Made by a program: the position numbers and the translations under genes. The notes under the pieces are model-generated. The model was not told the DNA's origin. It worked only from the letters and a program-made list of their open reading frames with translations, and ran no database searches. DNA of 47,112 nucleotides from Escherichia phage e4/1c. Below are positions 2,242 to 30,507 of the stretch, one piece after another (position 1 is the first letter of the stretch; each line of letters begins with the position of its first letter). Location: sequence record NC_024210.1. The stretch is one strand, 5' to 3'.

Positions 2242-2720
2242 ATGATTGAAAGATTCTTTGTAGATGATGATTTTTTTGTTAGGTGGGCTGACGGCCCAAA
2301 CAAGGGCAAGGTGGCACAAAAGATATCAAGGAATGGTTACGCAACGGTAAGGGCAAATGAAAAGGTAATGATGGCTCACAGAGTTGTCTATGAGTTAATG
2401 GTTGGTAATATACCTGACGGTATGGACATTGATCACATAAACCACAATAAGCTTGATAATAACCCATCGAACTTAAGGTGTGTAACAAGGTCAGAAAACA
2501 TGAGGAATATGAAAAAACCAGCAATAACACTAGCGGATTTACCGGGGTAACATTCAACAAGTCAAAAGGTAAGTGGCAGTGCCAGGCGCAAATAGATGGA
2601 AAGTATAAGTACTTAGGTTTGTTCGATGATTTAGATCAGGCTATATCAGCAAGGAAGAGATTTAATATTGATAATGGATTTCATGAAAATCATGGCAAGA
2701 CACTAAAAGCCAATGCGTGA
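2242..2720 (+). CDS. HNH-AP2 homing endonuclease, reading frame interrupted by -1 shift at A6 tract (2512-2517)
   Basis: HNH motif region HRVVYELMVGNIPDGMDIDHINHNKLDNNPSNLR in frame of 2185..2550; AP2-like part NTSGFTGVTFNKSKGKWQ continues in ORF 2478..2720; intact paralog at 26791..27294 shows the two parts are contiguous. Confidence 0.6.
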
Positions 2721-2726
2721 TACAAT

Positions 2727-2750
2727 GCCCCTTACTCAGGGGCTTTTTTA
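2727..2750 (+). terminator. rho-independent terminator
   Basis: GC stem gcccc/ggggc followed by T6. Confidence 0.7.
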
Positions 2751-2763
2751 TTGGAGAAATTAC

Positions 2764-3930
2764 ATGGTAAAAGCAGATAGCTACGCAAACATCTTTCTTA
2801 ATGGGAGTGATGGTAGCGAGATTTACGGAAAGCTTGGTGGGCTTGGGCTAACAGCTCCAGCGCAGCTTGAGCAGCTTTACGTCAACAGCGCACTGGTTCG
2901 CCGAATCATTGATATCGTGCCGGAGGTTGCACTTGGTGCTGGCTTTAACATCGAAGGCATCGGCGATGAAGGTGCTTTCTGGTCTCGATGGGATGATTTA
3001 GACCTTTCAGATAGCGTAATTGACGCCTTGGCGTGGGCAAGGTTATACGGTGGCGCAGCTGTAGTAGCAATCGTTAAGGATGGTAGGGCACTAACTAGCC
3101 CAGCTCGTGAAGGTGCGGAGCTCGAAACCGTTCGCGTATACGACCGGCAGCAAGTAAAAGTGCAGACTCGCGAGGAGAATCCACGAAACGCTCGATTTGG
3201 TAAGCCATTAACTTACCGCATCACGCCAAATGGTTCAGCTACGTTCTATGATGTACACTACACACGTTGCCATATCATTGATGGCGAGCGAGTGCCTAAC
3301 AATTTACGTCGTAATAACGATGGTTGGGGCGCAAGCGTGCTAACTAGTGACTTAATCGACGCGATTGACGACTATCAGAACTGCGAGAGACTGGCTACTC
3401 AGTTACTGCGTCGTAAACAGCAGGCTGTATGGAAAGCTAAGGGCCTTGCTGACTTGTGCGATGATTCGGATGGATTTGGCGCGGCTCGTTTACGTCTGGC
3501 TCAGGTAGATAATAACAGTGGCGTTGGTCAGGCTATCGGGATTGACGCGGAGAGTGAAGAGTACAACGTTCTCAACTCAGATATTGGCGGGATTGATACA
3601 TTTCTGAGTCAGAAGTTCGATCGAATCGTTGCTCTGAGCGGCATCCATGAAATTATTCTCAAGGCTAAGAATACTGGCGGTGTATCAGCTAGCCAAAATA
3701 CGGCTCTGGAAACTTTCTATGGTTACGTTGACCGCAAGCGCAAGGCTGAATTACTGCCCCTTCTTGAGTTCCTGCTTCCATTCATTGTAACTGAGCAGGA
3801 ATGGTCAGTAGAATTTAACCCTCTATCGCAGATTAGCGACAAGGATAAATCTGAGATTCTTGAGAAGAACGTCAATTCAGTTGCCGCATTGATTGCAGCT
3901 GGAATCATTGTTGCGCGCAATTTCAACTGA
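2764..3930 (+). CDS. portal protein
   Basis: 389 aa from ATG 2764 with RBS GGAGAAA; position after terL; size and acidic/aromatic content typical; ORF-track start 2713 would span the terminator. Confidence 0.7.
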   Translation: MVKADSYANIFLNGSDGSEIYGKLGGLGLTAPAQLEQLYVNSALVRRIIDIVPEVALGAGFNIEGIGDEGAFWSRWDDLDLSDSVIDALAWARLYGGAAVVAIVKDGRALTSPAREGAELETVRVYDRQQVKVQTREENPRNARFGKPLTYRITPNGSATFYDVHYTRCHIIDGERVPNNLRRNNDGWGASVLTSDLIDAIDDYQNCERLATQLLRRKQQAVWKAKGLADLCDDSDGFGAARLRLAQVDNNSGVGQAIGIDAESEEYNVLNSDIGGIDTFLSQKFDRIVALSGIHEIILKAKNTGGVSASQNTALETFYGYVDRKRKAELLPLLEFLLPFIVTEQEWSVEFNPLSQISDKDKSEILEKNVNSVAALIAAGIIVARNFN

Positions 3931-3974: not shown

Positions 3975-4739
3975 ATGAATCAGAAGACCCGCTGGATGTA
4001 TCCGCAAACAATTGAGAGCCAGATTAACCGCAGCCTTTTGGTTGCGGTATCTGAACTTATTGAGCAAATGAAGTTATCTGCAAAGAGGCTAAAAATTGAC
4101 ACAGCGCAGGAGATTGAAGAGGAAGATTCAGACCTTTCAGATGTAATCTCAGCGCTGCTATCTGGTTTTGTTTCCACTCTGCCTGCGCTGGCACTAGCAA
4201 TATATCGTTATAACTCGGCGCAATTCCTTAAGGTGGCCAACAACTCCGGAGGTAAGAATAATCCTGTAGTTCTTGCGCTAGGATTGTATGGTATTAACGC
4301 GGATGAACCATGGTGGCTCGACACCAGGAGCTCCTGGATTGTTGGCACGCAGTTAAGTGCATCAAAGCTGCTAAACAACATCAAGGATGATTTCATAAAC
4401 AACGCCATTACTGCGCAGGCTGGTAACACTGTTGACCTTGATGATAGATACCGAATCTACAGAAAGAGAACGGCAAATATCGCTGCTGGAATTACAGGGT
4501 CTCTAAACTCAAACCTTATGCGGAGAAGGCTTGAAGATGCCGGTGTATCTCAGTATGTTTGGCGTGGTAGACTTGACGACAAAGAGCGACCATCTCACGC
4601 TTTGCGTGAGGGGGTTAGCTTTAAATCAGATGGTTCGGACGCTGGAAAACTTGACGGCCTTGCGACATTCCCCGGTCAGCAATACGGGTGTCGTTGCTGG
4701 GCTGTTCCTAAATGGGAGAATTTAATTAATGAAGAGTAA
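3975..4739 (+). CDS. head morphogenesis protein (SPP1 gp7 / Mu F-like)
   Basis: 254 aa; C-terminal motif LREGVSFKSDGSDAGKLDGLATFPGQQYGCRCWAV typical of this family; follows portal. Confidence 0.7.
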   Translation: MNQKTRWMYPQTIESQINRSLLVAVSELIEQMKLSAKRLKIDTAQEIEEEDSDLSDVISALLSGFVSTLPALALAIYRYNSAQFLKVANNSGGKNNPVVLALGLYGINADEPWWLDTRSSWIVGTQLSASKLLNNIKDDFINNAITAQAGNTVDLDDRYRIYRKRTANIAAGITGSLNSNLMRRRLEDAGVSQYVWRGRLDDKERPSHALREGVSFKSDGSDAGKLDGLATFPGQQYGCRCWAVPKWENLINEE

Positions 4740-5838
4740 AATGCGTTATGATAGCGCCAAGGTAAAAGCCCATTTCGATGAGAACGGGTTTCTCGTGGAC
4801 ACTCCAGTGGTTGCTCGCGTAGGTGTACAAACCTACTATATGCCAGATGGTTCAGAGCGCCGAGAGTTCCGTCCGGCTTCAGAGGTTTTTAAAGCTGACT
4901 CCTTGCAAAGCTACCAGGGTAAGCCACTTACTCTGGGGCACGTTGTGGTTAACTCTGAAAATGCTAAAGAGGTTGTCGTTGGTTCTGTATCTGGATCAGC
5001 CATGCGTCAGGATTCGGCAGTGGTTGTTCCTCTTACCGTTTACGACAAGGAGGCAATTGAGAAGGCAAAGTCTGGCGTTGCTGGTGAGCTCTCGGTTGGA
5101 TATAACACCATTGATGTTGAATCTCCTGGTTGGGGCAGCAATGAAACAGGTGAGTATAAGCTGGACGGAGAATACGCAAGTCAGGATGAGATTCCTGCTG
5201 ATTGGGTACGCTTTGATGCACTGCAAACAAATATCGTTGTGAACCATGTCGCTCTTGTATATAAAGGTCGCGCAGGTATTGCTAAACTCAATCTGGACGC
5301 GGAACAGGAAAACCCGTATACTGATACCGTTCAATCAAATAAAGAGGATAAATTGATGATTAAGATTAAACTGGATGGCGAGAAGGAGTTCGAAATCGCC
5401 CCGGAAGTTGCTAAGCACATCGAGGCTGTTAAGGCTGATGCAGAGCAAGCAAAAGCCAAAGCTGACACCCTCGAAGCCGAGCGTGATGCACTGAAAGCTA
5501 AAGTTGATGGCATCCCAGCCGAAATCGAAGCTGCTGTAGCCAAAGCTAAAGCTGACGCTGACGAACTGGCCGCTCTGGTTGCTACCGCCGCAGAAGCTGG
5601 CGTTAAATGTGATGGTCTGGATGCTAAAGCAATCAAAGTTGCTTACGTTAAAGAAGTATCTGGCATTGAAGTTGCTGAGAAATCCGATGCGTACATCGAT
5701 GCGGCCTTTGATATCGCCAAATCTTCTGATAAAATGGCTGAAGCCCGTGTAGCAGTTGCTGGCGCGGAAAAATCTGATGCAGCACCGGAAGTTAAGACTC
5801 TTAACCCGCGTGCTCGCCTCGCTAAATTGAAAAAATAA
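4729..5838 (+). CDS. capsid scaffolding protein (globular N-domain plus Ala/Lys/Glu-rich coiled coil)
   Basis: C-terminal half is low-complexity AKA/EAE-rich heptad-like sequence; position between head morphogenesis gene and capsid genes. Confidence 0.55.
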   Translation: MKSKMRYDSAKVKAHFDENGFLVDTPVVARVGVQTYYMPDGSERREFRPASEVFKADSLQSYQGKPLTLGHVVVNSENAKEVVVGSVSGSAMRQDSAVVVPLTVYDKEAIEKAKSGVAGELSVGYNTIDVESPGWGSNETGEYKLDGEYASQDEIPADWVRFDALQTNIVVNHVALVYKGRAGIAKLNLDAEQENPYTDTVQSNKEDKLMIKIKLDGEKEFEIAPEVAKHIEAVKADAEQAKAKADTLEAERDALKAKVDGIPAEIEAAVAKAKADADELAALVATAAEAGVKCDGLDAKAIKVAYVKEVSGIEVAEKSDAYIDAAFDIAKSSDKMAEARVAVAGAEKSDAAPEVKTLNPRARLAKLKK

Positions 5839-5849
5839 GGAGTCTTAAT

Positions 5850-6374
5850 ATGGCAATTCGTTCCGTAGCACTGGCTGGTATGGTTTCTGACACTTCTCTG
5901 TATAACATCGACGGCGCCTGTGTAGTTGGCGGCGCAGCGGCAATTCCGGTTGGCACTGTCGTTGGTGTTACATCCGCTCAGCCTGTAGATGGTCACAAGG
6001 TTGTTGGCCTTCCCGCCGTAACTGGTACGCCAGTTAAACCTTATGGTGTTGTTGTTAAATCTCATTACGAGACCCCAGATGGTACGGCTCGCTTAAATGA
6101 AGCAGTTAACGTAATGACTCATGGTCGTATCTGGGTCCGCACCACCCTAGCATCTGCGCCAGTTTTTGGTAGCAAGGTTTTCGTAAACGCGAGTGGCGTT
6201 GTTGTTGCTGAGACGGCAGGCACTACTTGGGAGACCGGCTTTACATTTGCTGGCGGTTACGCTTCTGCTTATGCTAATAACGGCACTGACCCAATCAAGC
6301 AAGGTGAAAGCTACGATGGTGCAATCGTTGAGGTTCAGCTGATTCAATCCGCTGACTCAGCTGTCGCAGCTTAA
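5850..6374 (+). CDS. putative head structural/decoration protein
   Basis: 174 aa Gly/Val/Ala/Thr-rich beta-type sequence, strong RBS AAGGAG, in head module; function not resolvable from sequence. Confidence 0.35.
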   Translation: MAIRSVALAGMVSDTSLYNIDGACVVGGAAAIPVGTVVGVTSAQPVDGHKVVGLPAVTGTPVKPYGVVVKSHYETPDGTARLNEAVNVMTHGRIWVRTTLASAPVFGSKVFVNASGVVVAETAGTTWETGFTFAGGYASAYANNGTDPIKQGESYDGAIVEVQLIQSADSAVAA

Positions 6375-6380
6375 TTACAT

Positions 6381-6400
6381 GGCCCTTCGGGGCCTTTTTT
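6381..6400 (+). terminator. rho-independent terminator
   Basis: ggccc-ttcg-gggcc hairpin plus T6. Confidence 0.7.
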
Positions 6401-6413
6401 AATGGAGGCTTTT

Positions 6414-6560
6414 ATGATTTATTCATTCGATAAAATTTCAATCTCATACTACGACTCACCAGAATCTCTTATTGAAGAATTCAATCTCGAGGTTAAGGGT
6501 GTTCTTGATTCTGGTTTCAGGTATTTATATTCAGAACTCGCAGATGTTTTTTACTCATAA
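6414..6560 (+). CDS. hypothetical small protein (48 aa)
   Basis: ATG 6414 right after terminator; not in ORF track (below size cut-off); AT-rich. Confidence 0.25.
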   Translation: MIYSFDKISISYYDSPESLIEEFNLEVKGVLDSGFRYLYSELADVFYS

Positions 6561-6593
6561 CAAGAGTTAGGGCATGAAAAATCCCCAGACATA

Positions 6594-6983
6594 ATGGAGT
6601 CAAGATTCTTTGTGAGAACACTCCCACTCTCGGATAAGTCATCATCTGGAAGGGAAATTGAATCCATAGTTGCCAAGATATATGTTAAAGATATTGATTA
6701 CGGTTATGATGGTGGCCCATCCTTGCAAGAGTTAATTGATTCATTTTGCGTTGAAAATGGTTACGGCTACGTTCCGGCATCCGCAGGATCAAATGCAAGC
6801 GTCATAAATAAGGAAGAGAGTGAACCATTCGCTGTTCTTGAGAACGGGAAGTGGGTAACCTACCATAGAGCAAAGAAAAGACAAGCGACATTTGTGACTT
6901 ACATTAAATACTCAAAAGATTCATTGCAGAAAAAGTCTGGCTGGGCTTTAGTTAAGTACGAAGAAGTTGACGCTCCAGAGTAA
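6594..6983 (+). CDS. hypothetical protein (129 aa), possible moron
   Basis: ORF bracketed by two terminators inside head module; AT-rich relative to neighbours. Confidence 0.4.
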   Translation: MESRFFVRTLPLSDKSSSGREIESIVAKIYVKDIDYGYDGGPSLQELIDSFCVENGYGYVPASAGSNASVINKEESEPFAVLENGKWVTYHRAKKRQATFVTYIKYSKDSLQKKSGWALVKYEEVDAPE

Positions 6984-6988
6984 ATTTA

Positions 6989-7011
6989 AACCTCCTTCGG
7001 GAGGTTTTTTT
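6989..7011 (+). terminator. rho-independent terminator
   Basis: cctcc-ttcg-ggagg hairpin plus T7. Confidence 0.7.
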
Positions 7012-7064
7012 ACACCTATAATCTGTTAGACTTATCAGGTCTATTAACTAATCAGGAGATTAAG

Positions 7065-8582
7065 ATGGCTTTAGAATTTAAGCAAATCCTTGCCGGTAAC
7101 ACAGCTTCACTTAGCCACAAGGTGCTAGAGGCAATTGCGGAAGGTTGGCAGCCGTTCGATAGAGTCTTGACCGGAACTGGATCTAACACTATTGGCATGG
7201 TTGTAGCTAAGGGAACTAACGCAGACATTACCGACTTCATGGTTCTGAGTGCAACCAGTCGCCAAAAGCTAATTGATAGAGTAAATGAAATCACTCACGA
7301 AGGTTGGGAGGTGTTTGGCGAACCTTCATCTGAGTCAAATCAGTTTGCAGTTTCTTTAACTAAGGGTTTTCAGGGTACATCTGGTAGGGATGGAATGGCA
7401 GGACCACAAGGCCCACAAGGTCCACGTGGCGAGGTTGGCCCTGAAGGTCCGCAGGGTCCAAAAGGCGACGATGGTACGCCTGGTGAAAAGGGTGAGCGTG
7501 GAGCGGTAGGGCCACAAGGCACGGTTGGGCCTCAAGGCATTCAGGGACCTCAAGGTATTCAAGGACCAGCCGGATTGAAGGGTGACAAAGGTGATAGGGG
7601 TGATACTGGCCCACAGGGACCGCAAGGCTTGAAGGGTGACACTGGAGAGAAAGGTGATCCTGGCGAAGTCGGGCCTGCTGGTTTAACATTCCGTGGGCAA
7701 TGGGTTCCCGCCACTGATTATACAAAAGATGACACTGTAGTTTACGGTGGATCAACCTACTTCGCAGTTAGCAACATTGCAGCAGATGAGGAGCCTGGAG
7801 TATCACCTTTGTGGGTTGTTCTTGCCGCTCAGGGAACTAAGGGTGATAAGGGTGAAAAAGGTGATCCTGGCGATACTGGGCCTCAAGGCGAGAAAGGTGA
7901 TACAGGACCGCAGGGGCCAAGAGGAATTCAGGGTCAGCAAGGCATTCAAGGCTTGCCTGGTGATCAAGGACCAAAAGGTGATCAAGGATTGCAAGGTATC
8001 GCCGGACCAACCGGACCACAAGGCCCTAAAGGTGATACCGGACCGCAGGGCATTCAAGGTCAGCAGGGTATTCGTGGGTTAACTGGCCCAGCCGGTCCAC
8101 AAGGTCCTCAGGGTGGAAGGGGTGACGATGGCCCTCAGGGTGTAAAAGGTGATAAAGGTGATAAAGGTGATAAAGGTGATGCTCCTTACACATTATTTAA
8201 CTCAAGTAACGTGACGACGACATATATTGAAATACCCATCCCACAAGTAACAAACACTGTCCTAAGGGTTAGGCTTTCTGGTGCCAACTTTGAATACAGC
8301 GTTTTGAGCAAAGGTGGAGCGAATAGATATGTTGACTTTTACACATTCATTCCGTCATTAACCAGTTCAACTGGTAACATCTATACAGGAACGACTACCC
8401 TGACGCCAACTGGTAGCCTTTTTTTGGGTAACTCTCCTGTAGCTCTTGGGTTGAGGGAATTGACAATAACACTCAAGGAGTGGGGTGATAGGACTCTAAC
8501 CACAATAAAGGCTATACATCACGGAAGAACAGGTGATAACACAAGGCCTTTGCAGATAACTATGTTTAGTAATAAGTATTAA
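7065..8582 (+). CDS. collagen-like repeat protein (two Gly-X-Y blocks), putative head/virion fibre
   Basis: 505 aa; long runs GPQGPQGPRGEVGPEGPQGPKGDDG... (approx aa 106-205 and 258-365) separated by a non-collagenous insert; 130-aa C-terminal non-repeat domain. Confidence 0.8.
   Translation: MALEFKQILAGNTASLSHKVLEAIAEGWQPFDRVLTGTGSNTIGMVVAKGTNADITDFMVLSATSRQKLIDRVNEITHEGWEVFGEPSSESNQFAVSLTKGFQGTSGRDGMAGPQGPQGPRGEVGPEGPQGPKGDDGTPGEKGERGAVGPQGTVGPQGIQGPQGIQGPAGLKGDKGDRGDTGPQGPQGLKGDTGEKGDPGEVGPAGLTFRGQWVPATDYTKDDTVVYGGSTYFAVSNIAADEEPGVSPLWVVLAAQGTKGDKGEKGDPGDTGPQGEKGDTGPQGPRGIQGQQGIQGLPGDQGPKGDQGLQGIAGPTGPQGPKGDTGPQGIQGQQGIRGLTGPAGPQGPQGGRGDDGPQGVKGDKGDKGDKGDAPYTLFNSSNVTTTYIEIPIPQVTNTVLRVRLSGANFEYSVLSKGGANRYVDFYTFIPSLTSSTGNIYTGTTTLTPTGSLFLGNSPVALGLRELTITLKEWGDRTLTTIKAIHHGRTGDNTRPLQITMFSNKY
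8148..8179 (+). repeat. tandem 9-bp repeat (GGTGATAAA)x3.5 inside collagen-like gene
   Basis: encodes GDKGDKGDKGD; slippage-prone. Confidence 0.8.
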
Positions 8583-8595
8583 CAAAAAGCCCACC

Positions 8596-8624
8596 ATTGC
8601 GTGGGCTAAAAACTCGTGTATAAT
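8596..8624 (+). promoter_or_regulatory. candidate promoter for capsid gene (perfect -10 TATAAT at 8619-8624)
   Basis: TATAAT 39 bp upstream of MCP start; -35 region weak and overlaps hairpin 8588-8607. Confidence 0.35.
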
Positions 8625-8662
8625 GAATCCGTAGACACCTAACTGAAAAGGAACAATAAAGA

Positions 8663-9610
8663 ATGGCCATTAAATTTGATGCAGAACAAGCAAAAATCAC
8701 CGCTCACCTCGAGCAAATGGGCGTAGAGAAAGCAGACGCAGCTGGTATCTGGACCGTCAAGCAGCTTACAGAAACCCTAAAACGTAACTACGAGAAGGAA
8801 TACCCGGATAACTCCGTTGTTAATATCTTTCCTGTAAGTAACGAAATTCCAAGTCACGCAAAGTATTTCGAATATCCAGAATTTGATGGCGTTGGTATCG
8901 CTCAGATTATCGCTGATTACTCTGATGACCTGCCGCTGGTTGATGCCTTCATGACTGAGAAGCAGGGTAAAGTGTTCCGTTTCGGTAACGCATTCCTGGT
9001 TTCCGTTGACGAAATCAAAGCTGGTGCGGCAACTGGTCAGCCTTTGCAAACTCGCAAACAGGCTCTGGCATTTGAAGCACACGACAACCTGTTGGATAAA
9101 CTTGTTTGGCAAGGTTCTGCACCTCATGGTATTACCAGCGTATTCAACGCGCCTAACGTCAACCAGATTACTGCTAACGCAAGTGGTTGGACTGATGCGA
9201 AGAACGCGGTTGATGACATTACCTCAATGATTGATGCGGTTGAAATTGCTACCCAGGGCATTCACCATGTAACTGACATCATTCTTCCGGCATCCGCTCG
9301 TCGAGTAATGCAGGGTCTGGTTGCTGGTACTACCATTAGTTACGGTGAACTGTTTACTCGTAACAACCCTGGTCTTACCATTCGTTACCTTCAGTTCCTG
9401 GACAACTACGATGGTGCAGGCGGCAAAGCGGCTCTGGCATTTGAGAAGGACCCGCTGAACCTCAGCGTTGAGATTCCGGAGGCGACCAATGTGTTGCCAG
9501 CACAACCGCGAGACTTGCATTTCCGTTATCCTGTTACCTCCAAGTCTACTGGTCTGGTTATCTACCGACCGCTGACTGTATCTGTACTAAAAGGTATTAC
9601 CTATCCTTAA
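8663..9610 (+). CDS. major capsid protein
   Basis: 315 aa; strong RBS AAGGAAC; followed by strong terminator; position and size; preceded by perfect -10. Confidence 0.65.
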   Translation: MAIKFDAEQAKITAHLEQMGVEKADAAGIWTVKQLTETLKRNYEKEYPDNSVVNIFPVSNEIPSHAKYFEYPEFDGVGIAQIIADYSDDLPLVDAFMTEKQGKVFRFGNAFLVSVDEIKAGAATGQPLQTRKQALAFEAHDNLLDKLVWQGSAPHGITSVFNAPNVNQITANASGWTDAKNAVDDITSMIDAVEIATQGIHHVTDIILPASARRVMQGLVAGTTISYGELFTRNNPGLTIRYLQFLDNYDGAGGKAALAFEKDPLNLSVEIPEATNVLPAQPRDLHFRYPVTSKSTGLVIYRPLTVSVLKGITYP

Positions 9611-9616
9611 TAAATC

Positions 9617-9638
9617 GCCCTCTTCGGAGGGCTTTTTT
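9617..9638 (+). terminator. rho-independent terminator
   Basis: gccctc-ttcg-gagggc hairpin plus T6. Confidence 0.75.
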
Positions 9639-9702
9639 ACGCCTGTACGAAACCAAAACGATAGGTTATAATCACCACTAACAGATAACAAAGGAGATTA
9701 AA

Positions 9703-9948
9703 ATGATTCGTTTAGAACACACTGGCGCTTGCTTTATCATGATTGATGGTAAGGGTTATGTTCCAGGTGATTTTATTGAAACCAAAGTGCTTAGCGCTGG
9801 AATTAAACAGCTAATTGCAGAAGGCCGCCTCACTCTGGCTGATGACCCTAAGGAATCAAAAAAGATTGCTGAGGAGATTGCAAGTAAGCGCAAGCGCAAA
9901 GAACCGAAAACCATCTCCGAAGCTGAGACTGGTAACGAGTACAAATAA
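9703..9948 (+). CDS. hypothetical head/neck protein (81 aa)
   Basis: RBS AAGGAG; lysine-rich C-terminus; between MCP and connector genes. Confidence 0.45.
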   Translation: MIRLEHTGACFIMIDGKGYVPGDFIETKVLSAGIKQLIAEGRLTLADDPKESKKIAEEIASKRKRKEPKTISEAETGNEYK

Positions 9949-9991
9949 CAAACAGGGCGCTTCGGCGTCCTTTATTGTATGGAGATATCAA

Positions 9992-10393
9992 ATGAATGAA
10001 GAAGTAATTGCGTACATGCGCACGCTTTACCCTCCCCTTAAGAGTCAGCCAGATGATGTTCTTAACGCATGGATTGAGGTGGCTAAGCTTTTTATCTGTC
10101 TGGATAAGTTTGGCGACAAGCAGGTTCAGGCATTGGCATTCTACACGCTTCACTTGCTTAGCCAGGATATCGCACTTAATACTGAGAGCGATTCAAGCCA
10201 GACATCCTCTGAGCGGGTTAAGTCCTACTCACTTTCAGGCGAGTACACGATTAGCTATGATACCAGTACTGCTGCTGCGAGCTCATCTAACCTTGAAGCA
10301 TCCTCGTGGGGTAAGCTTTACATTGATTTGATGCGTCGCAAGGTTGGCCGCTGGGGTTTGATTACCTCTGGTGGGTCGAGGTGCTACCGATGA
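9992..10393 (+). CDS. putative head-tail connector (gp6-like adaptor)
   Basis: 133 aa from ATG 9992 (RBS GGAGAT); motif ALAFYTLHLL as in phage gp6-type head-tail connectors; gene order. Confidence 0.45.
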   Translation: MNEEVIAYMRTLYPPLKSQPDDVLNAWIEVAKLFICLDKFGDKQVQALAFYTLHLLSQDIALNTESDSSQTSSERVKSYSLSGEYTISYDTSTAAASSSNLEASSWGKLYIDLMRRKVGRWGLITSGGSRCYR

Positions 10394-18552: not shown

Positions 18553-18602
18553 TTTAGTGTAGAATGGCATAAATGGTTAAACAAACAACGAGGTTATATG
18601 AT

Positions 18603-21600
18603 ATGGCCGATTTGCCAAAGATTTATGGAAGCAAGGGTGGCAGCCAAAAGCAGCACACGCCAGTAGAGCAAGAAGATAACCTTATTTCACTTAACAAGAT
18701 TAAGGTTCTGCTTGCGGTTGCTGATGGTGAGGTTGACTCTAGCTTCTCGCTTAAGGATGTTTACCTTGCTGACGTTCCAGTTCAGAACCAGGACAACTCA
18801 TTCAACTATGAAGGTGTGACAGCTGAGTTTCGCCCCGGCACTCAATCCCAAGATTACATCGCAGGACTAGATGGCGCGGCATCAGAGATTCAGGTTAGTC
18901 GTGAAATTAACAACGACACACCTTACATCATCGGAGTTAACAACAGTCAGTTGTCAGCAATCCGTGTAAAGCTGTTCTGGCCTCGTCTCGTTAAGCAAGA
19001 AGAGAATGGAGATTTAAATGGTACAAAATGTGAATATGCAATCGATTTATCAGTTAATGGCTCAGCGTACACTGAATACACCAGAGGCGTGGCTAACGGT
19101 AAAACTACAACAGGTTACGACCGCAGTATCAGGGTTAACTTACCAGCCGAGTTTAGCAGCGCTCTTGTTCGTATTAGGAAGCTAACTCCTGACTCAAAAA
19201 GCAGCACGCTGGTGAACGGAATGCAGATTACAACCTATCAGGAAGTAATCGACGCTAAATTCCGCTACCCTCTTACAGCACTTGTTTATGTGGAGTTCAG
19301 TTCTGACCTGTTCCCTAATGGCATCCCAACGATAGCCATTAAGAAGAAGTGGAAGCTTATCCGCGTGCCGACAAATTACAATCCAGAGACAAGGACTTAT
19401 AGCGGTACATGGGATGGCACTTTTAAAATGGCATGGTCTGACAACCCGGCATGGGTTTTATATGACCTGGTGGTTAGCCAGCGTTACGGTTTAGATCAGC
19501 GAGAACTTGGTGTAGAGATTGATAAATGGGGGCTGTATGAAGCGGCGCAATTCTGTGACCAGATGGTTCCGGATGGTAATGGTGGAATGGAGCCGCGATA
19601 TACTTGTAACGTTGTCATTCAGCAGAAAGTGGAGGCGTATCAGCTTATTCGTGACATCTGTTCTATCTTCCGCGGTTTAACCTTCTACGATGGTGAGCAA
19701 ATCGGTATTGTTGTAGACAGGCCGCGCCAGCCTAGCTATGTGTTTACCAATGATAACGTTGTTGATGGTTTGTTTAACAGGACCTTCTCTAGTGATAAGT
19801 CTCTTTACACTACAGCAAACGTTCAGTTTGATGACGTAGAGAATAACTATCAGCAAGATGTTGAACCAGTGTTCGACCTTGAGGCAACTCGCCGCTTTGG
19901 TTATAACCCTGTAGATCTGACTGCAATTGGATGTGTAAGGCGTAGTGAGGCTAACCGTCGAGGTCGATGGCTGCTTAAAACAAACCTACGCAGTGAAACG
20001 GTAACTTTCACAACTGGCCTCGAAGGCATGATTCCGATGATTGGTGATGTAATTGCTGTCAATGACCAGGCCTGGTCTAGCAACTACACGTTAAACCTTT
20101 CTGGTCGAATCGTTGAGGCTGCAGGTTTGCAGGTTTTTGTACCATTCGCTATTGATGCGGACCCGGGCGACAGGATTTTAATCAACAAGCCAGATGGAAT
20201 CCCAGAGTACAGGACTATCGCTTCCGTATCTGCCGATAAGTTGACGCTTGAACTGAATACAGCATTCAGCTTCACGCCGCAGCCAGATACAGTATTTGCA
20301 ATAGACAAGCAGAATCTGGCTTTACAGAAGTATGTGGTGACCGGGATTCAAAAAGCTAACACGGACGGAGAGGACTCATTCCAGTACAGCATCACAGCCG
20401 TTCAGTATGACCCTAACAAGTACGATGAGATTGACTACGGTGTAAACATCGACGACAGGCCAACAAGCATCGTTGACCCTGACAGGATTTTGCCACCGCA
20501 GAACATCACCGTTACTAGCTACAGCAAGGTAGTTCAGGGTTTAAGCGTTGAGACGATGGTTATTGGTTACGACAAGGTGCAGTATGCGAAAACATACAAC
20601 GTACAATGGCGTAAGAACAATGGTAACTGGATTAACGTACCAGAGACGGCTAACACTGAGGTTGATATTGAAGGCATTTACGCTGGCATTTACGACGTCA
20701 GGGTTCGTGCTGTAACTGACCAGAAATCAGTGTCTGCATGGTCTGATATCACGACAGTCAGCTTGACTGGCAAGATTGGAGAGCCATCAGCGCCTCCTGT
20801 AATTACCGCATCTGATGATGAGGTCTTCGGGATTAGGGTTAGGTGGGGCTTCCCTACTGACTCAGCCGATACTGCGTACACCGAGCTTCAGCAGGTTCCG
20901 GATAATGGTGACGGTACATACAATCCAGAGAATGCATCACTGCTTACGCTGGTTCCTTACCCGCAGTATGAGTACTGGCACACAACTTTACCAGCAGGTA
21001 ACGTGAGGTGGTACAGGGCAAGGATTATTGACAGGATAGGTAACGTATCTCCATGGACTGATTTTGTCAGGGGTATGGCATCTGATGATGTAAGTGCAAT
21101 CATTGGCGACATCAAGGTTGATATAGAAAACTCCGATGGGTACAAGTATCTTCTCCAGAACGCTATTGATGCAAATACTGACATCCAGAACCAGGCCGAA
21201 GCAATAATCGAGAATGCCCTGGCAAACGACACTGATGTTCGCGTTATGAAGCGCGAGAATGGGGCAAGGAAGGCTGAATATCGCCAAGCTGTAAGTTTGA
21301 TTGCTGATGAAACTCAAGCGCGTGTAGACGCTCTCACGGAGCTTAAAGCGCAGATTGATGATGAGATTGTTGGTCAGATTACGACAATTGAGACCGCGCT
21401 AGCTACTGAGACCGAAGCAAGGGCTACAGCTGATACGGCTCTCAGTGCAAGGCTTGGGGATAACGAGGCGGCTTTGAATCAGAAGCTTGACTCTTATGCC
21501 ACAGTCGAAGGCGTTGGTGTTCAGTACGGCGTTAAGCTAGGCCTGAAGTACAATGGAGTTGAGTATGGCGCTGGTATGAGCATGGAGTTAACTGGTAGCG

Positions 21601-21989
21601 GTGGAAATGTTCGTAGTCAGTTCATTTTCGATGCTAACAGGTTCGCAATCAGCAACGGTATTAGTTCTGGTTCCGGTCAGTGGTCGCTGCCTTTCGTTGT
21701 CGAGAGTAACCAGGTATTCATCCAGAGCGCGGTGATTCAGGACGGCTCAATCACTAACGCGAAGATTGGCAACCGCATTCAATCAAACAACTATATACAA
21801 GGAAGTCAGGGGTGGGCGATTGATAAATCAGGAAGTGCTGAGCTAAACAATGCCACTGTTAGAGGAAGCTTATATGCAAGCAATGGTAACTTTGCATTTA
21901 ACGGAACAAATAACACAGTAGTAATCAACAACAATGGCATCACAGTTAACTTACCGGGAGGTGGAAGGGTTGTAGTTGGCGTGTGGTAA
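18603..21989 (+). CDS. tail tip / central fibre protein (lambda J-like)
   Basis: about 1128 aa; N-terminal GSKGGSQKQHTPVEQEDNL resembles J-type N-termini; last gene of lambda-like tail block. Confidence 0.85.
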   Translation: MADLPKIYGSKGGSQKQHTPVEQEDNLISLNKIKVLLAVADGEVDSSFSLKDVYLADVPVQNQDNSFNYEGVTAEFRPGTQSQDYIAGLDGAASEIQVSREINNDTPYIIGVNNSQLSAIRVKLFWPRLVKQEENGDLNGTKCEYAIDLSVNGSAYTEYTRGVANGKTTTGYDRSIRVNLPAEFSSALVRIRKLTPDSKSSTLVNGMQITTYQEVIDAKFRYPLTALVYVEFSSDLFPNGIPTIAIKKKWKLIRVPTNYNPETRTYSGTWDGTFKMAWSDNPAWVLYDLVVSQRYGLDQRELGVEIDKWGLYEAAQFCDQMVPDGNGGMEPRYTCNVVIQQKVEAYQLIRDICSIFRGLTFYDGEQIGIVVDRPRQPSYVFTNDNVVDGLFNRTFSSDKSLYTTANVQFDDVENNYQQDVEPVFDLEATRRFGYNPVDLTAIGCVRRSEANRRGRWLLKTNLRSETVTFTTGLEGMIPMIGDVIAVNDQAWSSNYTLNLSGRIVEAAGLQVFVPFAIDADPGDRILINKPDGIPEYRTIASVSADKLTLELNTAFSFTPQPDTVFAIDKQNLALQKYVVTGIQKANTDGEDSFQYSITAVQYDPNKYDEIDYGVNIDDRPTSIVDPDRILPPQNITVTSYSKVVQGLSVETMVIGYDKVQYAKTYNVQWRKNNGNWINVPETANTEVDIEGIYAGIYDVRVRAVTDQKSVSAWSDITTVSLTGKIGEPSAPPVITASDDEVFGIRVRWGFPTDSADTAYTELQQVPDNGDGTYNPENASLLTLVPYPQYEYWHTTLPAGNVRWYRARIIDRIGNVSPWTDFVRGMASDDVSAIIGDIKVDIENSDGYKYLLQNAIDANTDIQNQAEAIIENALANDTDVRVMKRENGARKAEYRQAVSLIADETQARVDALTELKAQIDDEIVGQITTIETALATETEARATADTALSARLGDNEAALNQKLDSYATVEGVGVQYGVKLGLKYNGVEYGAGMSMELTGSGGNVRSQFIFDANRFAISNGISSGSGQWSLPFVVESNQVFIQSAVIQDGSITNAKIGNRIQSNNYIQGSQGWAIDKSGSAELNNATVRGSLYASNGNFAFNGTNNTVVINNNGITVNLPGGGRVVVGVW

Positions 21990-27728: not shown

Positions 27729-27752
27729 AAAGCCCCTTTCGGGGCTTTTTTT
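27729..27752. terminator. bidirectional terminator between ssb and tail fibre gene
   Basis: agcccc-tttc-ggggct flanked by A-run upstream and T7 downstream. Confidence 0.7.
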
Positions 27753-30468
27753 ATTGCGATGTTACATCACCATTCAAGCTCAAAGATACTGATTGTTTTG
27801 TCAAATCAACACCACCTTTAAGTGAATAGTATCTTGAAGCGCAATAATCAGACTCATCTGAATAGCCGCCAACGTACACACCAAATCCATATCCAGAGCA
27901 AGCTACATCACCACCACCTTGACCTGAGTACATGGTAACATAATTACCAGCTGTTGTTAGTATAGGTCTGACATCAATATCTATATACTGAGAATCAAAT
28001 GACCTTCTAATTCTAAATCCAGTATTCAGGTTTAAGATGCTCCACCAAATCTTGCCGGATACATCAAAACCAAGAGCGATATTATAAATACCACCATTGA
28101 CCATTCTTGATGAGACTGGCAACACACCTGATAAAACTCTTGTTTCACCTGATGCTGATATTAACAATGATACACTGTGTTCTCCTGATGCCATCACGTT
28201 ATACTGCAAGTAAAGAGCATTACTATTAACTCCAAAACCAGTCCCTATAGCCATAAGGTTAAAGTCTTCAGCAACAGTTATGGTCGGCGATATATTGCAT
28301 GTAGCGGTGAAACCTAGTGACGGGTCAAATCCAGTGCATATAATCTTATCTTTATTTGCCTGTGAAAGCCTTAGCCAATATTGCTGCCCAACTGATGATG
28401 CCGCCGCGGCGAATACTGGTGTATTAGAGACCCCATCAAAAGCTGAAGTGTCGTTTGCTGGCTTAATTCTTGTCTTCCTTTTGTCTATTAGTCCGTTTAT
28501 CTTCAGGTTTCCTGAATACTCAGAAACATAGTTAGTGTCCCCTGAGAAATTTGGGCCAAAGTAACCAGATTCAACAACCCCATCGATCACAACATCAGAT
28601 CTTGAGTCAAGGAATCTGAAGTTGCCAGCGGAAGTTGGCCTTCCATCGCCATTGTTAGATACATAGTTAAGCCCAACAAAACCATAGATTCTTACAGAGC
28701 TATTTGAAAACGAAACGTTATAATCTCTGTAGTTTGAGTTTATGCTGTTCCTGTTACTATTTAATCCATTAAATACCACATTTCTAGAGTTTACAATTCT
28801 AACTCCGTCACCACCGCAATCCTGTGCTTCTATAGCTGACATGGTGATGTTTTGGCAGTTATCAACCAGGATGCCATAAGCATCATCAAGCTCATTGTAA
28901 GGCGACCAACCTGACCAAATAAACTTACCGCCAACAATCCTACAGTTTCCGGCATTCCTAAGTATTAGACAATTTCTTCCACAGGTGTTTACCTGTATGT
29001 TATTCCATGTGAAGTCTGTTGTTTCGTTAATCAATCCGTCTTTTTTTATGTGCTGAATAAGAACATCATCAAGAACGGGAGAGTAGTTACCAGCAGCAAC
29101 GAAAATTCCGTAAACATCAAACCCAGCAATGTGAGTGTTTCTTATCGTTAAGTCCCTCCTAGGGTCAGCACCAGCGTTGAATGGGTAATTGGTTGATAAC
29201 CCAGTCGGCGTAGGGATGTAAATCCCAGCAGTACCATCAGTAAACGCCGTGTCTTGCTGGGCTCCAGTGCCGTAAAGAGCAATTCCTTCAATATGAATGA
29301 GCGAGCAAGAATCAGATACCTCAATTAAAGAGCCAATTGATGAACTAAGCTGAGTTATTCTTGATTTGTGCTTGCCAAAACCAATTATAGAGCAAGATTT
29401 ATTTCTCATTACCAGGTTTGATGCCATGTAGTCGCTATTAAGCTTTAATGCCAGCCCAGAGTCTAGGATTTGCTGTATCTGTGTCGTTGAGTCTGATGTC
29501 GATGACTTAATAGCTCCAAGTTCGCAAGGCGACAGCTCCCCGCTACAGATTCTTTCCCAGTAATAACCGGTACTTGATTCAAAAACCAACCCTGAAGATA
29601 ATCCATATGATAACGATGACTCCGGCTTACAAACAAAGAACCCACCACCATAACCAAGACCACCAATGTAAGAATCACAATAGACAACCTCTAAGTCATA
29701 AATTCTGGCAGAGTTGGTCATTGCTGATACTGATTCAAACCTTCTTGTGTAATCCTGTTGAATCCAAAAACCAACTCCAATACCACCTGTAGACTGTGGT
29801 GATGAGTTTTGTGGTATGGATTTTGGAACGCTACCAGACCAGTAATAAACCGAAACATGATTGTCATTAAAGTAAATTGCAGGCTGAGTTCTTGAGTTTA
29901 TTTCTCCACCATTTGAGAAATCAACTACAAGAGCAGATGACACAGAAGCCGCAGCAGAGCTTGCTATTGTAGCTGAAGAGGAAGCCGAGTTAGCGCTACT
30001 TTCAGCTAACTGCCTATCAGAAGATGCCTGATCTTTGTCAGAAGAAACTTGAGCAGCATCAACAGCAACTTGCTGAGATTGCATGTTGACATTATTTACG
30101 CTTTGCTGGAAAGAATCAGAATCAAATTGATTAAAAGCATCAACTGCCGCTGCAACCTCTGTTTCACGGGACTGATAATAACGAAGTGTCTCAGCAACAT
30201 CCTGAGCAAGACCTTGGACAGTAATTCCGTCATGAGCAAGGATTGAGTACTGAGTCCCAGCTGGCGCAGTAAAACCTTTATCATTGAACACACGAATCTC
30301 TGTATCGCTTAAAATCTCAGCGATAGTAACAATGGTTGTCGGGGTGGTGTTAAAAATCATTGTTGCGCCAACTCGGATTAGCGTTAGTGGTTGCCTCCAC
30401 GTGGTGCCAACACCAGTTACAGTTCCGTCAGCCGCAAGCGATGCAGTTCCAGCGTCATAAATTGCCAT
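27751..30468 (-). CDS. lateral tail fibre / tailspike with beta-helix-like central domain
   Basis: about 905 aa from ATG 30468; N-terminus MAIYDAGTASLAADGTVTGVGTTW typical of tail fibre anchors; repeated N/G/I-rich segments consistent with a parallel beta-helix. Confidence 0.65.
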   Translation of the reverse strand: MAIYDAGTASLAADGTVTGVGTTWRQPLTLIRVGATMIFNTTPTTIVTIAEILSDTEIRVFNDKGFTAPAGTQYSILAHDGITVQGLAQDVAETLRYYQSRETEVAAAVDAFNQFDSDSFQQSVNNVNMQSQQVAVDAAQVSSDKDQASSDRQLAESSANSASSSATIASSAAASVSSALVVDFSNGGEINSRTQPAIYFNDNHVSVYYWSGSVPKSIPQNSSPQSTGGIGVGFWIQQDYTRRFESVSAMTNSARIYDLEVVYCDSYIGGLGYGGGFFVCKPESSLSYGLSSGLVFESSTGYYWERICSGELSPCELGAIKSSTSDSTTQIQQILDSGLALKLNSDYMASNLVMRNKSCSIIGFGKHKSRITQLSSSIGSLIEVSDSCSLIHIEGIALYGTGAQQDTAFTDGTAGIYIPTPTGLSTNYPFNAGADPRRDLTIRNTHIAGFDVYGIFVAAGNYSPVLDDVLIQHIKKDGLINETTDFTWNNIQVNTCGRNCLILRNAGNCRIVGGKFIWSGWSPYNELDDAYGILVDNCQNITMSAIEAQDCGGDGVRIVNSRNVVFNGLNSNRNSINSNYRDYNVSFSNSSVRIYGFVGLNYVSNNGDGRPTSAGNFRFLDSRSDVVIDGVVESGYFGPNFSGDTNYVSEYSGNLKINGLIDKRKTRIKPANDTSAFDGVSNTPVFAAAASSVGQQYWLRLSQANKDKIICTGFDPSLGFTATCNISPTITVAEDFNLMAIGTGFGVNSNALYLQYNVMASGEHSVSLLISASGETRVLSGVLPVSSRMVNGGIYNIALGFDVSGKIWWSILNLNTGFRIRRSFDSQYIDIDVRPILTTAGNYVTMYSGQGGGDVACSGYGFGVYVGGYSDESDYCASRYYSLKGGVDLTKQSVSLSLNGDVTSQ

Positions 30469-30492
30469 TATGTAAATTCTCCATTTGTAAAA

Positions 30493-30507
30493 TAGCACGA
30501 ATTGCTA
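30493..30507. promoter_or_regulatory. palindrome TAGCACGAATTGCTA in 5' region of tail fibre gene (atypical placement)
   Basis: perfect copy about 25 bp upstream of tail fibre start codon, downstream of a TACAAT -10-like hexamer on the minus strand. Confidence 0.4.

Follow-up and report, generated by a model that had tools for sequence, protein, structure and literature searches.

An optional, chimeric collagen-type fibre gene between the cement and major capsid genes of the T1-like Escherichia phage e4/1c

Introduction

Which part of the particle, if any, is built by a collagen-like protein whose gene is lodged among the head genes of a siphophage? The question is raised by Escherichia phage e4/1c (NC_024210.1), a T1-like siphophage (Drexlerviridae) represented by a complete or near-complete genome segment; the window analyzed here is the whole stretch of 47,112 nucleotides. 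On its + strand, positions 7065..8582 hold an open reading frame (ORF) of 505 amino acids with an ATG start, taken from the ORF list and here called the fibre gene, which is a full-length member of the protein family phrog_5073. A sequence-only reading of this DNA had seen a collagen-like protein in the ORF and had proposed that it is a head fibre or decoration protein.

The product is very probably an optional, trimeric, collagen-type fibre of the virion, wherever on the particle it is attached. A more complete statement, an accessory trimeric fibre of ~65-70 nm that is most likely anchored on the capsid, is the reading that we favour on balance, with less assurance than the first. Trimerization, the capsid location, glycan binding and a benefit for adsorption are what we infer from the evidence below. 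The family was already known and is uncharacterized: no published function of any phrog_5073 member was found in a literature search. What is new is that the e4/1c protein is a chimeric member of the collagen-stalked phage fibres. Likewise new are the definition of a putative anchor of the tandem DUF1737 type that is limited to a slot among the head genes, the cassette boundaries, a conserved extended -10 element, the use of a short repeat as a junction and the optional character of the gene.

Domain Organization of the Fibre Protein

Two long Gly-X-Y blocks without interruption, surrounded by non-collagenous parts, had been described from the letters, and this description holds. Block 1 (residues 101-208, nt 7365-7688, + strand) is composed of 36 uninterrupted triplets and block 2 (residues 257-373, nt 7833-8183, + strand) of 39, with mostly P, D or E at the X position and mostly Q or K at the Y position. 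The Pfam Collagen profile (PF01391) matches with E 2.5e-35 and 120.5 bits for a cutoff of 27.2, a score so well over the cutoff that the match is far above chance. The remainder has three parts: 100 amino acids at the N-terminus, 48 in an insert that separates the blocks and 132 at the C-terminus. ORFs in other frames of the collagen region or antisense to it (such as 7360-7755 on the - strand and 7747-8082 on the + strand) were set aside, as they look like by-products of the repeat composition.

Collagen rises 2.9 Å per residue (PMC3368898). If they are triple-helical, blocks 1 and 2 would measure ~31 nm and ~34 nm, respectively, giving a fibre of ~65-70 nm once the globular parts are included. 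Prophage-encoded collagen-like proteins of E. coli, produced in E. coli, form true triple helices with a melting temperature of 42 °C, nucleated by a C-terminal trimerization knob (PMC3368898); these proteins resemble the fibre protein in composition.

The N-terminal domain (residues 1-100, nt 7065-7364, + strand) is the putative virion anchor. The structure model divides it into two beta-alpha-beta halves, both DUF1737-like. DUF1737 (PF08410) reaches 31.6 bits, for a cutoff of 24, over the whole protein, and no single stretch passes alone; three relatives of the domain, P0133, P0168 and P0185, match DUF1737 more strongly than the fibre protein does. The domain has no structural relative. A word-indexed homologue search with this domain returned nothing for the single sequence and one protein for the profile. 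When 1.84 billion representative proteins were searched exhaustively with the profile, only 86 relatives were returned, 18 of them with E <1e-10.

The insert between the collagen blocks (residues 209-256, nt 7689-7832, + strand) is a small beta domain that resembles carbohydrate-binding modules of the CBM5/12 type and would form a knob in the middle of the fibre. The Pfam family CBM_5_12 is found at E 1.4e-3 and 19.1 bits, below its cutoff of 26.2, and the family profile of the insert matches the chitin-binding domains of chitinases (E 6e-5 to 6e-3), which makes a CBM5/12 fold plausible. The insert is conserved in all relatives, with Y219, D223, V225, P244 and W250 invariant. Among solved structures, the top match of the profile, above the chitinase domains, is chain AE of PDB 7b5h (All3316), from a cyanobacterial contractile injection system (E 1.7e-5).

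The C-terminal domain (residues 374-505, nt 8184-8579, + strand) is confidently modelled as a 10-strand beta-sandwich and represents the putative trimerizing and ligand-binding tip. Its fold is not the jelly roll of C1q/TNF or BclA-type proteins. No immunoglobulin-family Pfam match, as would be expected of a Hoc-type domain, was obtained, and the similarity in this direction is that of sandwiches in general. The Pfam scan did not detect any fibritin or foldon signature in the fibre protein.

Family Membership and Chimeric Origin

Residues 1-503 of the fibre protein align with positions 1-516 of the 519 positions of the phrog_5073 profile (E 1e-154), and both ends match in isolation, the N-terminal domain with E 1.5e-23 and the C-terminal domain with E 7e-17. 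In the databases, members of the family are labelled 'tail fiber protein', 'collagen repeat protein', 'hypothetical protein' or 'DNA polymerase'. The last label, which is attached to the N-terminal part of the family and is also used in the form 'DNA polymerase I' (phrog_22681; RefSeq NC_007291, NC_024784, NC_047740 and others), has no support from sequence or model and looks like a propagated mis-annotation. Named relatives with the same family, slot and domain order are bas01_0010 of AugustePiccard, gp21 of Rogue1 and CDS0013 of Phagiculus.

The two ends of the protein have different closest relatives. Over its entire length, the protein is 72% identical to its counterparts in Phagiculus and MM01 and 51-53% to those in AugustePiccard and RobRod40. 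The N-terminal domain alone shares 97% identity with Phagiculus, 95% with MM01 and ~40% with AugustePiccard. For the C-terminal domain, the identity with AugustePiccard and RobRod40 is 96%, and Phagiculus and MM01 were not found by a search with this domain only. At the nucleotide level, the sliding identity with Phagiculus is 0.74-0.98 before position ~8100 and 0.39-0.48 after it, while that with AugustePiccard is 0.33-0.64 before and 0.78-0.91 after. The allele is thus a new chimera, with an anchor and shaft of the Phagiculus type and a tip of the AugustePiccard type.

The parental identity switches at ~8100-8180, which is the place of a 9-bp tandem repeat, and the repeat is therefore taken as the junction of the chimera. 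Tandem Repeats Finder (TRF) delimits it on the + strand at 8145-8180, with a period of 9, 4.0 copies and a 100% match; the unit is AAAGGTGAT, and the repeat as a whole encodes (KGD)4. This encloses the interval 8148-8179, in which a perfect 9-bp repeat had been noticed before. The accompanying idea of a variable copy number is correct in so far as (KGD)n stands directly before the tip in 2 to 4 copies among the relatives; the repeat is, however, better read as a recombination junction between parental alleles than as a copy-number switch alone. It is probably a hotspot of recombination or slippage. Beyond the T1-like phages, the C-terminal domain is 45-52% identical to proteins of T4-like Dhakavirus (JS10, VR25 and VR26) and of rV5-like Vequintavirinae (A5-4 and A7_1), and this module is exchanged with T4-like and rV5-like phages.

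A Self-Contained and Optional Cassette

The left boundary of the cassette is marked by an intrinsic terminator on the + strand, which ends the upstream ORF. RNA folding gives its stem (6988-7007), followed by a T-run to position 7011, a free energy of -14.7 kcal/mol and a z-score of -4.86. The sequence-only reading had placed a terminator before the gene, and this hairpin, conserved in 8 relatives, confirms it; in two loci, the stem carries compensatory changes (CCTCC/GGAGG to CCCGC/GCGGG). The same reading had pointed to TATAAT at 7017-7022. These letters are present, but as a promoter, they were rejected: they lack a -35 box, are not called by the promoter scan and vary in relatives, and a conserved extended -10 element lies 7 bp further on. 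This promoter-like element, TGTTAGACT (TGnTAnAnT, 7024-7032, + strand), keeps its TG, T-12, A-11, A-9 and T-7 invariant across the 8 loci of the upstream alignment and is likely the fibre gene's own promoter, as far as its sequence tells. A Shine-Dalgarno sequence, AGGAG (7054-7058, + strand), is located 6 nt 5' of the ATG, with GGAG invariant in the alignment of the relatives.

At the right boundary, a hairpin spans 8588-8607 (+ strand, folding free energy -12.6, z -4.2). It has no T-run on the + strand; seen from the - strand, it would have the form of a terminator. A second extended -10 element, TGTATAAT (8617-8624, + strand), precedes the major capsid gene and is invariant in the 7 loci compared for this boundary; it belongs to the context and lies outside the fibre gene. 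Both the hairpin and TGTATAAT are kept in phage SU57, which has no fibre cassette.

The content of the slot differs from phage to phage. In SU57, it is empty, and the terminator hairpin is followed almost at once by the second hairpin, the one before the capsid gene. JulesPiccard carries three small ORFs there, Rogue1 the fibre gene only, and AugustePiccard, Phleasolo and the metagenomic contig L013 an esterase of the SGNH/GDSL type together with the fibre gene. This esterase, of ~430 amino acids, is encoded just 5' of the fibre gene (bas01_0009 of AugustePiccard, L001 3629-4918; Phleasolo_8, L011 133-1419; and L013 4621-5913) and belongs to phrog_9703, labelled 'head decoration' (E 5e-111). 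Phage e4/1c does not possess it.

Disrupted alleles also exist, and they occur in viable, plaque-forming isolates. In Phleasolo, the gene is split by an in-frame amber TAG (L011 2029-2031) in place of the Gln codon of a GPQ triplet; a frameshift, the other explanation considered for the split, was rejected. In a host with the supE (glnV) suppressor, this codon would again be read as the wild-type residue. In three related records (Opt-79, Opt-719 and Sadiya), the annotation likewise gives the gene as split. In a metagenomic allele (L008 6001-7014), which is ~0.5 kb shorter, two frame shifts fall within the collagen repeats; an identical N-terminal product of 154 amino acids recurs in three samples, and the allele may reflect either real decay or, in part, an artefact of repeat assembly. 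The fibre gene is therefore optional, as the slot of SU57 is empty, the N-terminal domain occurs in 33 records against 839 for the capsid protein family (123 of them at >=60% identity), and disrupted alleles are found in viable phages.

Location on the Virion

For the place of the fibre on the particle, the gene neighbourhood is the first indication. The order is prohead protease, cement protein, fibre and major capsid protein. The protease, with a scaffold-like tail (DUF2213), is encoded at 4729-5838, the cement protein (PF22758, E 7e-26) at 5850-6374 and the capsid protein (Pfam PF09950, E 2e-37) at 8663-9610, only 80 nt after the end of the fibre gene. The earlier placement of the gene in the head cluster, between a possible moron and the major capsid gene, is correct as to the neighbourhood; the ORF upstream is an orphan of 129 amino acids. 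As for the proposal of a head fibre or decoration protein, several independent arguments from context favour it, and none of the tools used put the protein on the capsid.

The N-terminal domain is confined to the same slot. It is present in 33 phage records only, all from Escherichia, Shigella or Klebsiella phages, and all loci with the domain that were examined among these records are T1-like genomes. In every T1-like locus examined (AugustePiccard, Rogue1, Phagiculus, UDF157lw, Phleasolo and the metagenomic contigs L008 and L013), the fibre gene stands between the cement and capsid genes. A sister protein, P0130, has the same N-terminal domain and is encoded in the cement-capsid slot of the T1-like contig L013. 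Its shaft is of the phi29-head-fibre type: it passes the Pfam model Phage_head_fibr with 35 bits (cutoff of 24.6) and matches 'head fiber' PHROGs, and its full length fits phrog_1954, a 'virion structural protein' in the category head and packaging. The gene of P0133, a more distant relative of the domain, lies directly 3' of a portal gene.

Two other distant relatives of the N-terminal domain, P0169 and P0185 (L014 6001-6984 and L017 3044-4783), are fused to coiled coils. They are lone + strand genes inside - strand blocks of replication genes in an unrelated phage type, so that the domain also occurs outside head modules.

Outside the T1-like phages, the JS10 homologue of the module of collagen, knob, collagen and tip adjoins two Hoc-like genes, and the A5-4 homologue is found 3' of the capsid gene and 5' of the neck genes. 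In the relatives mentioned above, the esterase next to the fibre gene is a 'head decoration' protein according to its PHROG. Finally, the tail adhesins of e4/1c are encoded elsewhere: the central fibre J at 18573-21989 and the lateral tail fibre at 27751-30498, a layout that fits the scheme of host recognition in Drexlerviridae (PMC8594841). A weak further argument, from 7 linked loci, is that the identity of the N-terminal domain follows that of the cement protein (Spearman 0.66) better than that of the capsid protein (0.35) or the protease (-0.51).

The points that weigh against a capsid-borne, glycan-binding fibre are of several kinds. PHROG and RefSeq label the family 'tail fiber protein', and the combination of collagen, a CBM-like domain and a beta-sandwich, with swapping of the tip, is a classic trait of side tail fibres. 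That the gene is dispensable does not decide the matter, since in the laboratory phages can also do without their side tail fibres. The solved T1-like capsids (9kmg, 9kmh and 9kzj) list cement and BIG2 decoration proteins and no relative of the fibre protein, and no such relative was found in any solved structure. The only proteomics study found, on the AHP24-type phages, which carry the gene, did not report the fibre protein (Niu et al. 2014), a result that is uninformative for this protein because only seven excised gel bands were analyzed. The PHROG 'head' labels are annotations, not experiments. The co-variation of the N-terminal domain with the cement protein may reflect linkage only. With respect to the ligand, the Trp-Trp pair with which ChiC binds chitin has no counterpart in the insert in a pairwise alignment; glycan binding by the insert is unproven for this reason.

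Among the alternatives, a lateral tail fibre or another tail-associated adhesin whose gene lies in the head module by chance survives best, although we regard it as unlikely. The N-terminus would then dock on a protein of the tail or baseplate, and the tip would read the primary receptor glycan and extend the host range. The naming of phrog_5073 and of many RefSeq records is in line with this, as are the 743 phage records with collagen similarity, most of which are tail fibre or minor tail proteins, and the argument that the collagen-like prophage proteins of E. coli are side tail fibres (PMC3368898); mosaic exchange of tips is also typical of receptor-binding proteins. The label, however, can be explained by the similarity of collagen repeats alone. 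The N-terminal domain, moreover, is unrelated to the Stf-type domain of lambda (PfN), since the Pfam scan gives only Collagen, DUF1737 and CBM_5_12. It does not align with the N-terminus of the lateral tail fibre of e4/1c either, the part that is conserved for attachment in Drexlerviridae (PMC8594841). The gene never occurs in the tail-fibre locus among the relatives examined, and sister proteins with the same N-terminal domain bear shafts of the head-fibre type.

A whisker of the neck or collar, comparable to T4 fibritin at the head-tail junction, which would sense the environment or help in assembly and not decorate the shell, is still less probable. Trimeric fibres encoded near head genes can indeed be attached to the neck, and in A5-4 (Vequintavirinae), the homologue follows a collagen protein of 1263 amino acids with a Fibritin_C foldon and lies just 5' of the neck genes. 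In Drexlerviridae, on the other hand, the gene lies upstream of the capsid gene, with several genes separating it from the connector genes, the fibre protein itself lacks a fibritin or foldon signature, and its N-terminal domain co-varies, if weakly, with the cement protein and not with downstream genes. The A5-4 collagen protein, A54_224 (L007 2314-6105), deserves mention in its own right: with the capsid gene on one side and the homologue of the tip module on the other, it represents a second collagen fibre encoded in the head and neck neighbourhood of that phage.

A product outside the virion, either a secreted or cell-associated collagen-like protein of the moron type or a decaying passenger gene without function, is very improbable: its own promoter and terminator, a patchy distribution, the disrupted alleles and the solitary position of P0169 and P0185 in the replication regions of other phages would suit it, but intact full-length alleles with a conserved domain order persist in many divergent phages, the sequence (starting MALEFKQILAG...) has no apparent signal peptide or membrane feature as judged by reading, without a predictor, the architecture of N-terminal adaptor and fibre is that of virion fibres, and the gene sits in the late structural operon.

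Proposed Structure and Function

For the preferred reading, a fibre on the capsid, the following course can be proposed. Assembly of the three chains would start at the C-terminal beta-sandwich and proceed, like a zip, into two collagen triple helices, parted by a knob of three CBM5/12-like domains, which would leave the fibre flexible. The tandem DUF1737-like domain would act as the anchor and most likely dock on the capsid shell, on or next to the trimers of the cement protein or at the centers of the hexamers. Knob and tip may bind glycans of the cell surface or matrix weakly and reversibly. Such binding could increase the capture of host cells or the retention near hosts, without being needed for infection. 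Genetically, terminator, probable extended -10 promoter and ORF form a self-contained cassette in the variable slot between cement and capsid genes. The collagen repeats, notably the 9-bp repeat that encodes (KGD)n next to the tip, would serve as recombination linkers for the exchange of tips between unrelated phages.

Genome Setting

The region 6000-10000 shows 80-88% nucleotide identity to the Escherichia phages Phagiculus, MM01, RobRod40, AugustePiccard and SU57. The local gene order begins with the terminase, followed by the portal gene (2713-3930) and a head morphogenesis protein; 3' of the capsid gene come DUF7444 and then the connector and tail genes. The variable slot of e4/1c contains, besides the fibre gene, two orphan ORFs of 52 (6402-6560) and 129 amino acids (ORF129, 6594-6983), the latter ending at its own terminator. 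Searches of Pfam and PHROG did not reveal any match for ORF129, and its sole similarity is a partial 45% match at the same position in MM01. A role as a dedicated chaperone of the fibre is unlikely for this orphan, as other phages with the fibre gene lack it or have a different one.

With Rogue1, the protease shares 95% identity and the cement protein only 51%; with Phagiculus, the values are 75% and 93%, respectively. Because of these opposite patterns, a recombination breakpoint is placed at the boundary between the protease and cement genes (window position ~5840). A major capsid protein nearly identical to that of e4/1c (E 3.6e-181) is present in PDB 9n01 and 9yix, with five chains in total. 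Given the small number of chains and the fact that no matching cement protein was found, these entries may represent a complex, not a capsid.

Comparison with Known Systems

Collagen-like capsid appendages have a precedent in phage SPP1. The gp12 gene of that phage is just upstream of the major capsid gene, and the protein, of ~6.6 kDa, has a few triplets and no globular anchor, knob or tip. The e4/1c protein is also collagen-like, and its gene, too, neighbours the major capsid gene among the head genes, but, unlike gp12, it has 505 amino acids, 75 triplets and three globular modules. Gp12 is a non-essential trimer at the quasi-six-fold positions (hexamers), with a presumed role in host adhesion (PMC7602432). 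The likeness is one of description, any similarity in sequence would be limited to low-complexity triplets, and the binding of gp12 to the capsid is proven, whereas the link of the fibre protein to the capsid consists in genomic context.

In phi29, gp8.5 is a trimeric capsid fibre at quasi-three-fold positions; it is dispensable, with a presumed role in attachment (PMC7602432). The connection to gp8.5 (PF11133) is made by the sister protein P0130, which shares the N-terminal domain and the slot and matches PF11133 in its shaft; this match does not cover the capsid-binding base of gp8.5. The fibre protein itself has no PF11133 match in Pfam, and its shaft is collagen, in contrast to the helix-turn-helix supercoil of gp8.5.

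With the E. coli prophage proteins EPclA-EPclD and with lambda Stf, the fibre protein has in common the succession of an N-terminal adaptor, a collagen stalk and a C-terminal trimerizing knob. EPclA-EPclD form the triple helix in E. coli without hydroxyproline and are modular, with parts exchanged by recombination (PMC3368898). They differ in having a PfN N-terminus and a position in tail-fibre loci, where the fibre protein has a DUF1737-type N-terminus and a locus in the head module. T4 Hoc, finally, is a dispensable, outward-projecting adhesin, proposed to improve capture or dispersal (PMC7602432). If capsid-borne, the fibre protein would have the same proposed role, and the JS10 homologue indeed lies beside hoc-like genes.

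Implications for T1-like Phages

The annotation of the family is inconsistent (tail fiber, collagen protein and DNA polymerase), and predictions of host range that treat the fibre as a receptor-binding tail fibre may therefore mislead. The cassette boundaries and the repeat junction provide a clean natural example of collagen repeats as recombination linkers, with exchange of tips between phage families. Should the fibre be attached to the capsid, it would exceed in length every other collagen-type head appendage described from coliphages. The tandem DUF1737 would then be a new anchor domain, which could display cargo on T1-like capsids. A capsid-displayed esterase in the sister phages, if true, would be of interest in itself.

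A wider generalization is tentative, and we consider it possible rather than probable. Between their cement and capsid genes, T1-like phages may keep a swappable 'capsid accessory' slot, with the DUF1737-type domain as a universal capsid anchor, so far unrecognized, that displays fibres of ~65-70 nm, of collagen, coiled-coil or phi29 type, with exchangeable glycan-binding tips. Together with the capsid-borne SGNH esterase of the sister phages, the head, in place of the tail, would then perform the first, long-range capture and the processing of polysaccharides of host or matrix. If the capsid location is true, there would be a head-mediated step of host capture in a phage family that is widely used in collections for therapy and infamous for contaminating laboratories.

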